DNA of 64,000 bases from Mobula hypostoma. Lineage: Eukaryota. This document shows positions 29,026-32,445 of the stretch, in pieces. A program made the position numbers and the translations under genes. Position 1 is the stretch's first letter, and every line of letters starts with the position of its first letter. Where the stretch lies: contig NC_086108.1 in assembly GCF_963921235.1 (NCBI RefSeq), positions 81,098,001-81,162,000 on the forward strand. Reading direction: 5' to 3'. The notes beneath the pieces were generated by a model, which did not search any database, was not told the origin of the DNA, and saw nothing but the letters and a program-made list of their open reading frames with translations.

Positions 29026-29255
29026 TGAAACACCTTCAATAACGCCAAAAGACTAGGTTAGGTAAAATACCGAAAGGCTTTTATTCGCTGTACAACAATA
29101 CGACCTCCATGGTGAGTGTCTGCCCCCGGACTGAGGGGGAAGGGCAAGGCGAAACACCTTTATACCGGACTCTGTGGGAGGAGCCACAGGGGCAGTCAGC
29201 AGAGGGACGTGTCCAGACAGTTAACCGAGTTACAACATATATATGGTTTACCACA
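29026..29255 (-). repeat. 3' LTR
   Basis: 230 bp; TATAAA (29164-59) and AATAAA on the minus strand; about 11 substitutions and 2 small indels versus the 5' LTR by manual comparison. Confidence 0.97.
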
Positions 29256-29324
29256 CTCACCCCTCCTTTTTTTAAAAAGAGCCCTGCGGGGTGAAGTGAC
29301 TGACAATATTTAAAGCAAGTATAT

Positions 29325-32155
29325 TTACAGGTCAAGTGTATCAGGCGGTCGAGTCCGTCGCTGTGATCTACGTAGCACTGGCGGTGATCGCATCGGCGAT
29401 GGCGGTTGTGCTGGCTCCGGCCTGACTTCGGGTGCCAGCACGTTAGGCGTTGTTGATCCCTTGTGCGTGTGCGTCGCACCCAGTATGGGAGTGTCGTGTG
29501 GTGTCTGTATAGGGTTTGGAGTGCGCGGTGTCTCGTGGGTACATACATCGGTGGGTACGGGGTCAATAGTCACCATGGAGTGTTCAGGGTAGGGGCCCGG
29601 AGCTCCTGCGGGCGCCAGGTTGCGGATGGAGACCGTATCCTCCCGCCCATCAGGTAAAACCACGTAGGCATACTGGGGGTTCGCATGAAGTAAGTGGACC
29701 CTCTCGACTATCAGGGAGTATTTATTGCTCCTTGCATGTTTCCAGAGCAGCACTGGCCCCGGGGATGTCAGCCAAGTTGGTAGGGTGGTTCCAGTGGTGG
29801 ACTTTCTGGGAAATGAAAAGAGCCGCTCATGAGGGGTGGCATTGGTGGCTGTGCATAACAGGGAGCGGATGGAATGGAGTGCCTCGGGAAGGACCTCCTG
29901 CCAGCGGGAGACCGGCAGTCCCTTTGACCTGAGGGCTAAGAGTGTGGCTTTCCACACCGTGCCATTCTCCTTCTCTACCTGTCCATTCCCCTGGGGATTA
30001 TAGCTCGTGGACCTACTAGTTGCAATTCCCCTCGCCAGCAGGTATTGGCGCAGCTCGTCACTCATAAATGAGGACCCTCTGTCACTGTGGATATAGCATG
30101 GGTATCCGAACAGAGTGAAGAGCTTGCGCAGGGCTTTTATAACTGACGTGGTAGTGGTGTCTGGGCAGGGGATGGCGAAGGGGAACCGCGAGTACTTGTC
30201 GATAACGTTAAGAAAGTACACATTGTGGTCTGTGGAGGGAAGGGGGCCCTTAAAGTCAACACTCAGTCGCTCAAAGGGGCGGGCGGCCTTGAGGAGTTGT
30301 GCCTTTTCGGGTCGGTAGAAGTGCGGTTTGCACTCTGCGCAGACTTGGCAGTCCCTGGTCATCATCCCGATTTCCTCAAGGGAGTAAGGTAGGTTCCGGG
30401 CTTTCACGAAGTGGAAAAGCCAGGTGACCCCCGGGTGACTCCTGGGTGGCAAAGATCTACATGTAGGGCGTATAGCCGGTCGATCTGCGCGCTGGCGTAC
30501 GTTCCCCAGGATAGGGCATCGAAGGGCTCGTTGAGCTTCCCAGGCCTGTACATGCTGTCATAGTTGTAGGTGGAGAGTTCGATTCTTCACCTCAGAATTT
30601 TATTGTTTTTGATTTTGCCCCACTGTTGGTTACTAAACATGAATGCGACTGAGCGCTGGTCAGTTAGCAGGGGTATGTGACATATCCCTACAAAACTGGG
30701 GATTGTAATTGGTGGGAGGGGCCAATCATACTCCATTGTCACGCTTTTCAGGTAGCTCTGGAAGTCGAGCCCCAATAGCACAGGGGCACACAGTTGAGGC
30801 ATGACCAGTAACGTAAAGTCTCGATATTCTGTGCCCTGCACCACTAGTGTCACTACACAACACCCCCGGATGTCTGTTGTATGCGACCTGGAAACCATGG
30901 CGACCCTCTGACTTACCGGCCGTATCATGAATCCGCAATGCTGCACCGTGGCCGGGTGGATAAAACTCTCCCTGCTGCCCGTGTCAAACAGGCAGCTTGT
31001 CCTGCGCCCCTCCACCAGGATGTCCATCATTGACCTTGCGAGCTGGTGGGGAGCGCTTTGGTCGAGGGTCACGGAAGCCAGGATGGGGTCGCTGTCTTGG
31101 TCCGGCGTGGTGGGGTGCCCTGTGAGCACCTGTTGGTCGTAGGCAGTGGGAGGTGGCGCCGACCAAGATGGCCACCCCCATGTCTCGCACGTGGTGGGGG
31201 CGTGCAGGGAAGATGGTGGCAGGCAAGATGGCAACCCCCATGTTTCACATGCGGCGCTGCTCGATCCCGCTCTTGGTTTTGACTTACAGATCTTCGTGAA
31301 GTGGCCCTTCTTTCTGCAGCTGGAGCAGGTAGCTTGTCGGGCCGGGCAGCATTTCCGGGGGTGCTTCTCCAGTCCGCAGAAGTAGCACTTCGCGGACTCG
31401 CAACTGGCAGCAGCCGAGGTCGATTCGCCAGCGGGTTGCGGGGACTTGCGACTGGCGGCAGCCGAGGTCGAATCGCCGGCGGGTTGCGGGGACTTGCAAC
31501 TGGCGGCAGCCGAGGTCAAATCGCCGGCGGGTTGCGGGGACTTGCGACTGGCGGCAGCCGAGGTCGAATCGCTGGCGGGTTGCGGGGTCTGCAGCGCCCA
31601 TGAGGCCATCAGGGAATTGCGTGCCTGGACAGCCTCAGAGTTATGCAGAGCGGCCTCCAGCATGTCGGCCAGCTCGATCGTGGAACTTAAGGTAAGATTG
31701 GCTTTTTCCAGCAGCCGCTGGCGCACATACACTGACCTGGTCCCCATGACGAATGCGTCCCTCACTAGGAGCTCTGCATGCTTTGCCGCCGTCAGCTCCA
31801 GGCAACTGCGGGCCCGTACGAGCGTCTATAGTGTCCGGATAAACTCGGCACTCGATTCCCCAGGCCGCTGGTGCTGAGTCGCTAATCGGTGCTGCGCATA
31901 GACGGCATTTATCGGCCACAGGTATTGTCTTCTGAGGGCGCTCATCACGCCATCGTAGCTCAACTGGTCTCTGACCAGCGAATAGACCCGTGGACTGACC
32001 CTGGAGAGTAGAACTCTGCGCTTCGCTACGGGGTCGGTCGCTTTAATCTCCTCTAGATACGCTTTGAAGCAGGCCAGCCAGAGTTCGAAAGCGTTTCCAG
32101 CTTCAGGTGTTTGCGGATCGAGGTCTAATTTGTCGGGTCTCAGTGTGTGTTCCAT
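29325..32155 (-). pseudogene. gag-protease-(RT deleted)-RNase H C-terminus-integrase polyprotein
   Basis: ORFs 32155-31826, 31765-30587 and 30452-29325. Zinc knuckles CYFCGLEKH and CSSCRKKGHFTKIC; protease LFDTGS; RNase H end LTDQRSVAFMF; IN HHCC with VDFKGP / HSDRG / NGQVEKEN. Disabled by two in-frame stops and an 11-nt duplication at ~30425-30447. Confidence 0.93.
31401..31587 (-). repeat. 48-bp coding tandem repeat (~4 copies) in gag
   Basis: Unit CGACTGGCGGCAGCCGAGGTCGAATCGCCGGCGGGTTGCGGGGACTTG, encoding SPQPAGDSTSAAASRK on the minus strand. Confidence 0.95.
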
Positions 32156-32181
32156 GCTTTAAAATGTACAGCGAATAAAAT

Positions 32182-32414
32182 TGAAGCACCTTCAATAACT
32201 CCAAAAGACTGAGGTTAGGTAAAATACCGAAAGGCTTTTATTCACTGTACAACAATACGATCTCCCTGGTGAGTGTCTGCCCCCGGACTGAGGGGGAGGG
32301 GCAAGGCGAAACATCTTTATACTGGAATCTGTGGGAGGAGCCACAGGGGCAGTCAGCAGAGGGGCGTGTCCAGACAGTTAACCCAGTTACAACATATATA
32401 CGTGGTTTACCACA
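32182..32414 (-). repeat. 5' LTR
   Basis: 233-bp direct repeat of 29026-29255; TATAAA at 32321-32316. Confidence 0.97.
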
Positions 32415-32445
32415 ATTGGTCGGCTTGGTAGCATTGCATTTCCTC

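Follow-up and report, generated by a model that had tools for sequence, protein, structure and literature searches.

Gypsy retrotransposons of a lineage without a chromodomain, found here as a family in Mobula hypostoma, probably prime reverse transcription in a Tf1-like manner with a piece of about 50 nt from the 5′ end of their own RNA, and some form of self-priming, all versions taken together, is very likely. In these elements the primer-binding site (PBS) behind the 5′ LTR pairs with a segment of the element's own LTR; the pairing exceeds chance and is lineage-wide. Self-priming has been placed in the Tf1/sushi, Tcn1 and TAR lineages, as far as the accessible portions of the literature go (PMC6317226, PMC3601003, PMC4600332, PMC6238403, PMC7175516, PMC10085805, PMC2864245, PMC13402810). 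A literature search outside subscription papers and Repbase returned no paper on the present lineage, on a primer ending at a poly(A) signal or on a Gypsy reverse transcriptase (RT) with YLDN. Some animal Gypsy families are described as self-primed in Repbase annotations.

Anatomy of the window copy

The window, that is, the whole stretch of DNA analysed, comprises 64,000 nt of Mobula hypostoma (GCF_963921235.1, NC_086108.1:81,098,001-81,162,000, forward strand). It contains a Gypsy copy on the minus strand at 32414-29026, flanked by CCAAT target-site duplications (TSDs), with the following features:

32415-32419, minus strand: target-site duplication CCAAT, other copy at 29025-29021
32182-32414, minus strand: 5′ LTR, TGTGG...TTCA, 233 nt
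32316-32321, minus strand: TATA box, at LTR nt 94
32285-32291, minus strand: initiator-like TCAGTCC, predicted start A at 32289 (LTR nt 126)
32236-32251, minus strand: self-complementary segment, LTR nt 164-179, predicted primer 3′ end, AATAAA at 32242-32237
32229-32235, minus strand: GCCTTTC, 5′ strand of the second helix directly after the predicted cut, from RCCT conservation and the partner test
32186-32193, minus strand: GAAGGTGC, predicted 3′ strand of the second helix, in U5
32165-32180, minus strand: PBS, TTTTATTCGCTGTACA, no TGG, 1 nt past the LTR, conserved core 14 nt
30587-32155, minus strand: gag (double Cys-His knuckle) and protease, stop codon at 31828-31826
30657-30672, minus strand: junction of a deletion of about 1.2 kb, RT and most of RNase H lost
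29325-30557, minus strand: integrase frame, no chromodomain
29256-29273, minus strand: polypurine tract (PPT)
29026-29255, minus strand: 3′ LTR, 230 nt, second segment copy at 29094-29079

The TG...CA LTRs, TSD and PPT of a Ty3/Gypsy element are all present, and the two LTRs agree at 219 of 230 aligned letters. Because of the stop in gag and the deletion across RT and RNase H, this copy is dead. A 48-bp tandem repeat has expanded in gag at 31391-31630, to a copy number private to this copy. The element is enclosed by another repeat at 33012-28866 on the minus strand, which has terminal inverted repeats of about 20 bp and TAA on both sides; we take it to be PIF/Harbinger-like, and empty-site joins are seen for it.

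Pairing between the PBS and the LTR

On the minus strand the 5′ LTR ends in CTTCA, followed by A (32181) and then by TTTTATTCGCTGTACA (32180-32165), so that the first-pass annotation was right in reading no TGG and no tRNA site here. The same 16 nt are, as it also stated, the exact reverse complement of 29094-29079 in the 3′ LTR and match 32251-32236 in the 5′ LTR at 15 of 16 positions. The remaining position had been read as a U-G wobble: the mismatch is real, but it is no trait of the family, being a private CG to TG decay in the 5′ LTR only, and most family copies keep CG at this site. The segment copy in the 3′ LTR could pair with the PBS too, which had been overlooked. In shuffled LTRs the longest Watson-Crick run has a mean of 3.7 nt and a maximum of 10 (3,800 shuffles). 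Folding of the whole region is unremarkable (z-score -1.29), and the case for the pairing therefore rests on covariation and not on energy.

Covariation between and within families

Scans yielded 88 loci outside the own genome, 50 of them without a gag start and 3 with too little upstream sequence. Covariation of PBS and LTR segment among relatives had been proposed as a check on the initial reading, and 28 of the 35 testable relatives carry at least 10 Watson-Crick pairs just after the CA, while a damaged version of the duplex is present in four and no pairing was found in three (L065, L093 and L097). With the LTR pair as an independent boundary, the duplex appears in 19 of 24 rows; four of the five misses were truncated or mis-set LTR ends at which the duplex was found later, and the fifth was the pair of another element. 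Repeat pairs or hairpins at L084, L124/125, L131, L136 and L137 were rejected as not being LTRs of the element.

For 19 families, a partly selected set in which eight were chosen through the hairpin search and whose family statistics are inflated by this, paired runs average 14.1 nt with the own LTR, 4.7 nt with other LTRs and 3.7 nt with shuffles, and the own LTR is the best match for the PBS in 18. The PBS lies at offset 1 in all 19, none of which has TGG, and every one of the 209 cells for its positions 1-11 is paired, one of them by G-U. L086 and L087 are separated by one compensatory change, and in L052 the pairing extends over 22 nt. The Tf1/sushi trait of a PBS complementary to the element's own LTR-derived RNA is hence found in this lineage, and covariation between families, like that within the genome, strongly supports the self-priming geometry first proposed from the window copy.

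The family is large in its own genome, with 2,569 first-look candidates and 454 exact normal junctions. An older subfamily carries a T to A change in the PBS, and the matching A to T change in the LTR is seen in 16 of 17 readable copies (14 of 15 when fold-backs, described below, are left aside). Conversely, the 30 LTRs with the T variant include two 5′ LTRs, both followed by the matching PBS. Other changes have no counterpart in the LTR: PBS positions 15-16 vary in six copies of one variant and in a G16 subfamily, and a change at position 6 is common to three copies. The constrained core of the PBS is therefore about 14 nt, and the uncompensated changes speak against perfect templating.

The junction, the second helix and the poly(A) signal

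RCCT comes directly after the segment in 15 of 19 families, giving a conserved AAA/RCCT junction (the slash marking the predicted cut). An exact downstream partner of RCCT bases 2-4 is likewise present in 15 of 19 families versus 5.2 when shuffled (0 of 5,000 shuffles), and two families change both sides of this second helix, which in length alone is no longer than control helices. The partner is about 40 nt downstream both in this family and in L116, past the expected poly(A) site, and the helix would therefore form only in the 5′ copy. A third, 'pretzel' duplex was not found in the 19 families (mean z -0.12).

AATAAA or ATTAAA lies within the segment in 11 of 19 families, and the other 8 are without a canonical hexamer. 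Pairing probability in this family is 0.98-1.0 over most of the duplex and 0.56 at the last A of AAUAAA. Going by these folds, masking of the poly(A) signal by the duplex is plausible in this family; by the hexamer counts it is not universal across families, and it would likely be a side benefit for the 5′ AAUAAA wherever the segment holds a hexamer. Given that only 11 families have one, masking is not the conserved core of the arrangement, whereas the fixed offset and the junction are.

The predicted RNA start

TATAAA is present in 50 of 66 family LTRs and AATAAA in a further 12, and the distance from TATA to the A of the initiator-like TCAGT is 31-33 nt in 57 of 60. The predicted start, LTR nt 126 (32289 in the window), is 38 nt upstream of the segment. 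A TATA-predicted start about 40 nt before the segment had been suggested from the window copy, and it is supported by the conserved TATA-initiator pair and by three aberrant fold-back insertions that end at LTR nt 125-127. Two of these switch template at microhomology, and one (L210) ends with three extra letters and then the TSD; as read from their sequences, the three ends would fit an RNA 5′ end at this point. L174, considered as another stop at the start site, was dropped as an interrupted arm. Relatives outside rays show no clear TATA, and none at a fixed distance.

Fold-back insertions

Besides the normal junctions, 36 exact junctions continue as the element's own LTR in inverted orientation, versus none in the reversed control, and 34 of the 36 junctions that leave the normal leader are of this inverted-LTR kind. 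With up to 3 mismatches allowed, at least 56 fold-back loci are found in the genome (G000; for example L159, L162, L176, L187 and L210). They consist of an LTR, an A and an inverted LTR from nt 176 to nt 1, about 406 bp in total, many with a 5-bp TSD. They look like MITEs yet have two U3 ends.

The 61 loci examined comprise 27 complete palindromes flanked by a 5-bp TSD, 13 insertions in which the arm is full but no TSD can be read, one head-to-head LTR pair and nine insertions that stop early (at nt 127, 127, 125, 5, 6, 7, 13, 22 and 158). The remaining 11 were flagged as continuing into the PPT, two of them doubtfully, and about 9-11 reach the PPT and integrase. Two aberrant copies jump at the PBS end. 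In L189, L190 and L195, all TSD-flanked, either a whole element lies in inverted orientation between direct LTRs, or the template was switched several times.

Since TSDs are present, the fold-backs arose during reverse transcription. Fold-back at a replication fork after insertion was considered for the palindromes and rejected, given that each arm ends at LTR nt 1, with the TSD directly next to it. The fold-backs do not prove the source of the primer, because mis-annealing of any PBS copy yields them too.

Protein domains and lineage

Complete family copies measure 4.2-4.6 kb, with the order PR-RT-RH-IN and no chromodomain, and the Gypsy domain order PR-RT-RNase H-IN is found in family copy L036 and in four homologues. 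The absence of a chromodomain, noted earlier for the window element, is confirmed by domain searches with zero matches to Chromo, and the precomputed domains of 120 homologues hold none either. RNase H motifs are present in homologues. The window copy has the double Cys-His knuckle, and so have 75 of 121 stored proteins; Gag is missing from many of the remainder.

Most RTs carry the motif YxDN: 81 of 111 scored homologues have it, as do 28 of 32 scored copies from the own genome, and among the latter YxDD is absent. YxDD and YxDN sequences intermingle on a quick RT tree, which contains relatives only and has no root for clade placement. The PBS-LTR duplex is not confined to YxDN elements, being present in the YxDD families L062 and L107 as well.

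The closest named proteins are from rays and catshark, followed at 55-63% by those of a sea anemone and by unnamed ones from metagenomes. Queries of the own genome with distant proteins led to the same family again, and the viral contigs searched contained no relatives. The lineage is likely a self-priming Gypsy lineage of marine animals, and the dead window copy has apparently live relatives in many other genomes.

Discussion

Cleavage, priming and poly(A) masking are steps that we infer from sequence. In the cycle we favour, a capped RNA would start at about LTR nt 126 and its segment would fold onto the PBS. Cleavage at AAA/RCCU or close to it, perhaps by the element's RNase H in analogy to Tf1, would free the 3′-OH of a primer of about 50 nt, the extension of which would copy U5 and leave about 20 nt of R for strand transfer. 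The primer would remain attached to the minus strand and be copied during plus-strand synthesis, so that the PBS would be rewritten from the LTR in each cycle. Should plus-strand copying run too far, its end would resemble minus strong-stop and could transfer onto R to give a fold-back. Retention and copying of the primer in this way would account for the covariation as well as for the high frequency of fold-back insertions.

About 9-11 of the 61 fold-backs, the read-through products with PPT and integrase, are more simply accounted for by a primer at the 3′ end of the RNA. In such a scheme the 3′-LTR segment at the tail of the genomic RNA would pair with the PBS, be trimmed after AAUAAAA and prime, the RNA forming a circle. 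The segment is indeed present in both LTRs, and these products run through U3, the PPT and internal sequence, in L189 and L192 up to the PBS, like copies of a whole attached RNA. We nevertheless consider this scheme unlikely: the 5′ segment is only 54 nt from the PBS and pairs with it at a probability near 1 in local folds, in this family the second helix depends on U5 sequence from past the expected poly(A) site, the ends of three products fall at the predicted cap site, and R-mediated transfer of a plus strand copying the 5′ primer would yield equal read-through products. Slightly less probable again is a mechanism identical to that of Tf1, with the RNA starting at the segment from a second start site and a primer of only 11-16 nt. 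The TATA-initiator pair conserved 38 nt upstream of the segment argues against it, as do the three products ending at nt 125-127 and the 22-nt pairing in L052, although normal PBS complementarity ends at 14-16 nt, where the two aberrant copies jump, relatives are without a TATA at a fixed distance, and Tf1 uses its first 11 nt, according to the accessible part of PMC7175516.

Priming by a host RNA, either a tRNA half or a small RNA, with the duplex only regulating polyadenylation or persisting as a relic, is very improbable. In its favour, 11 of 19 families have a canonical hexamer at the end of the segment, and the host tRNA sample is tiny (9 distinct sequences, all tRNA-Lys(TTT)). However, TGG is absent, the PBS differs from family to family and follows the LTR of its own family, even to single compensatory changes within one genome, masking has no need of a fixed offset from the LTR end, and 8 of 19 families do without a canonical hexamer. 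Beyond the favoured cycle, a broader proposal is that a widespread non-chromovirus animal Gypsy lineage evolved its own self-priming, with a long capped primer whose end lies at the poly(A) signal and which silences that signal in the 5′ LTR, a cut at the conserved AAA/RCCU, a PBS rewritten each cycle and a DDN-type RT, the fold-backs being the fossil record of the primer. We offer this tentatively, and rate it at somewhat under an even chance.

Like Tf1 and Tf2 of S. pombe, Tj1 and Tf1/sushi elements, the lineage has a PBS by the 5′ LTR that is complementary to its own LTR-derived RNA, in place of a tRNA site, and a further helix beside the primer duplex, as those elements are described in the accessible text (PMC7175516, PMC10085805, PMC4600332). 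It works like Tf1 yet lacks two Tf1/sushi features, the chromodomain and a detectable third duplex. Its RT is mostly YxDN, unlike that of Tf1/sushi, and its segment ends at a poly(A) hexamer in 11 of 19 families; unlike in Tf1, the paired segment is about 38 nt inside the predicted RNA and not at the 5′ end. Self-priming was likewise predicted for plant Tcn1 (gypsy) and TAR/Houba/Osr-1 (copia), where a stretch of the 5′ LTR can pair with the bases just downstream of that LTR, but they belong to other lineages in other hosts, and the portion of the report available to us mentions neither a poly(A) overlap nor fold-backs (PMC6317226).

The first-pass annotation overlooked the second helix flanking the predicted cut and the YxDN RT; new here, besides these, are the AAA/RCCT junction, the TATA-initiator pair and the fold-backs. 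A Mag-related placement of the lineage is possible. Mag elements carry a double Cys-His knuckle in Gag as a lineage feature and, unlike the present lineage with its probable self-priming and mostly YxDN RT, are tRNA-primed with a YxDD RT. The short single ORF, double Cys-His knuckle, 5-bp TSD and short LTRs with AATAAA are shared with Mag, SURL and Jule, some of these features being described in PMC3601003 and PMC6238403. The Asn in place of the last catalytic Asp of YxDD is also that of Ty1 RT D211N, which polymerises in vitro and abolishes transposition unless RNase H mutations suppress the defect, as stated in the accessible part of PMC2148107. Unlike D211N, YxDN is the majority state of a lineage with hundreds of copies, and such a natural enzyme makes the Ty1 result testable in an evolved setting.

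If the proposal is true, a separate animal lineage with a longer primer would mean repeated escape from tRNA dependence, and with it escape from silencing aimed at tRNA-type primer sites. One structure could also answer how the poly(A) signal of the 5′ LTR gets ignored. The fold-back insertions suggest that an element's RNA start and primer can be mapped from accidents left in the genome, with no bench work. Eight bacterial MAG contigs (L131-L138) carry animal-type retrotransposons of this kind, probably as host contamination.
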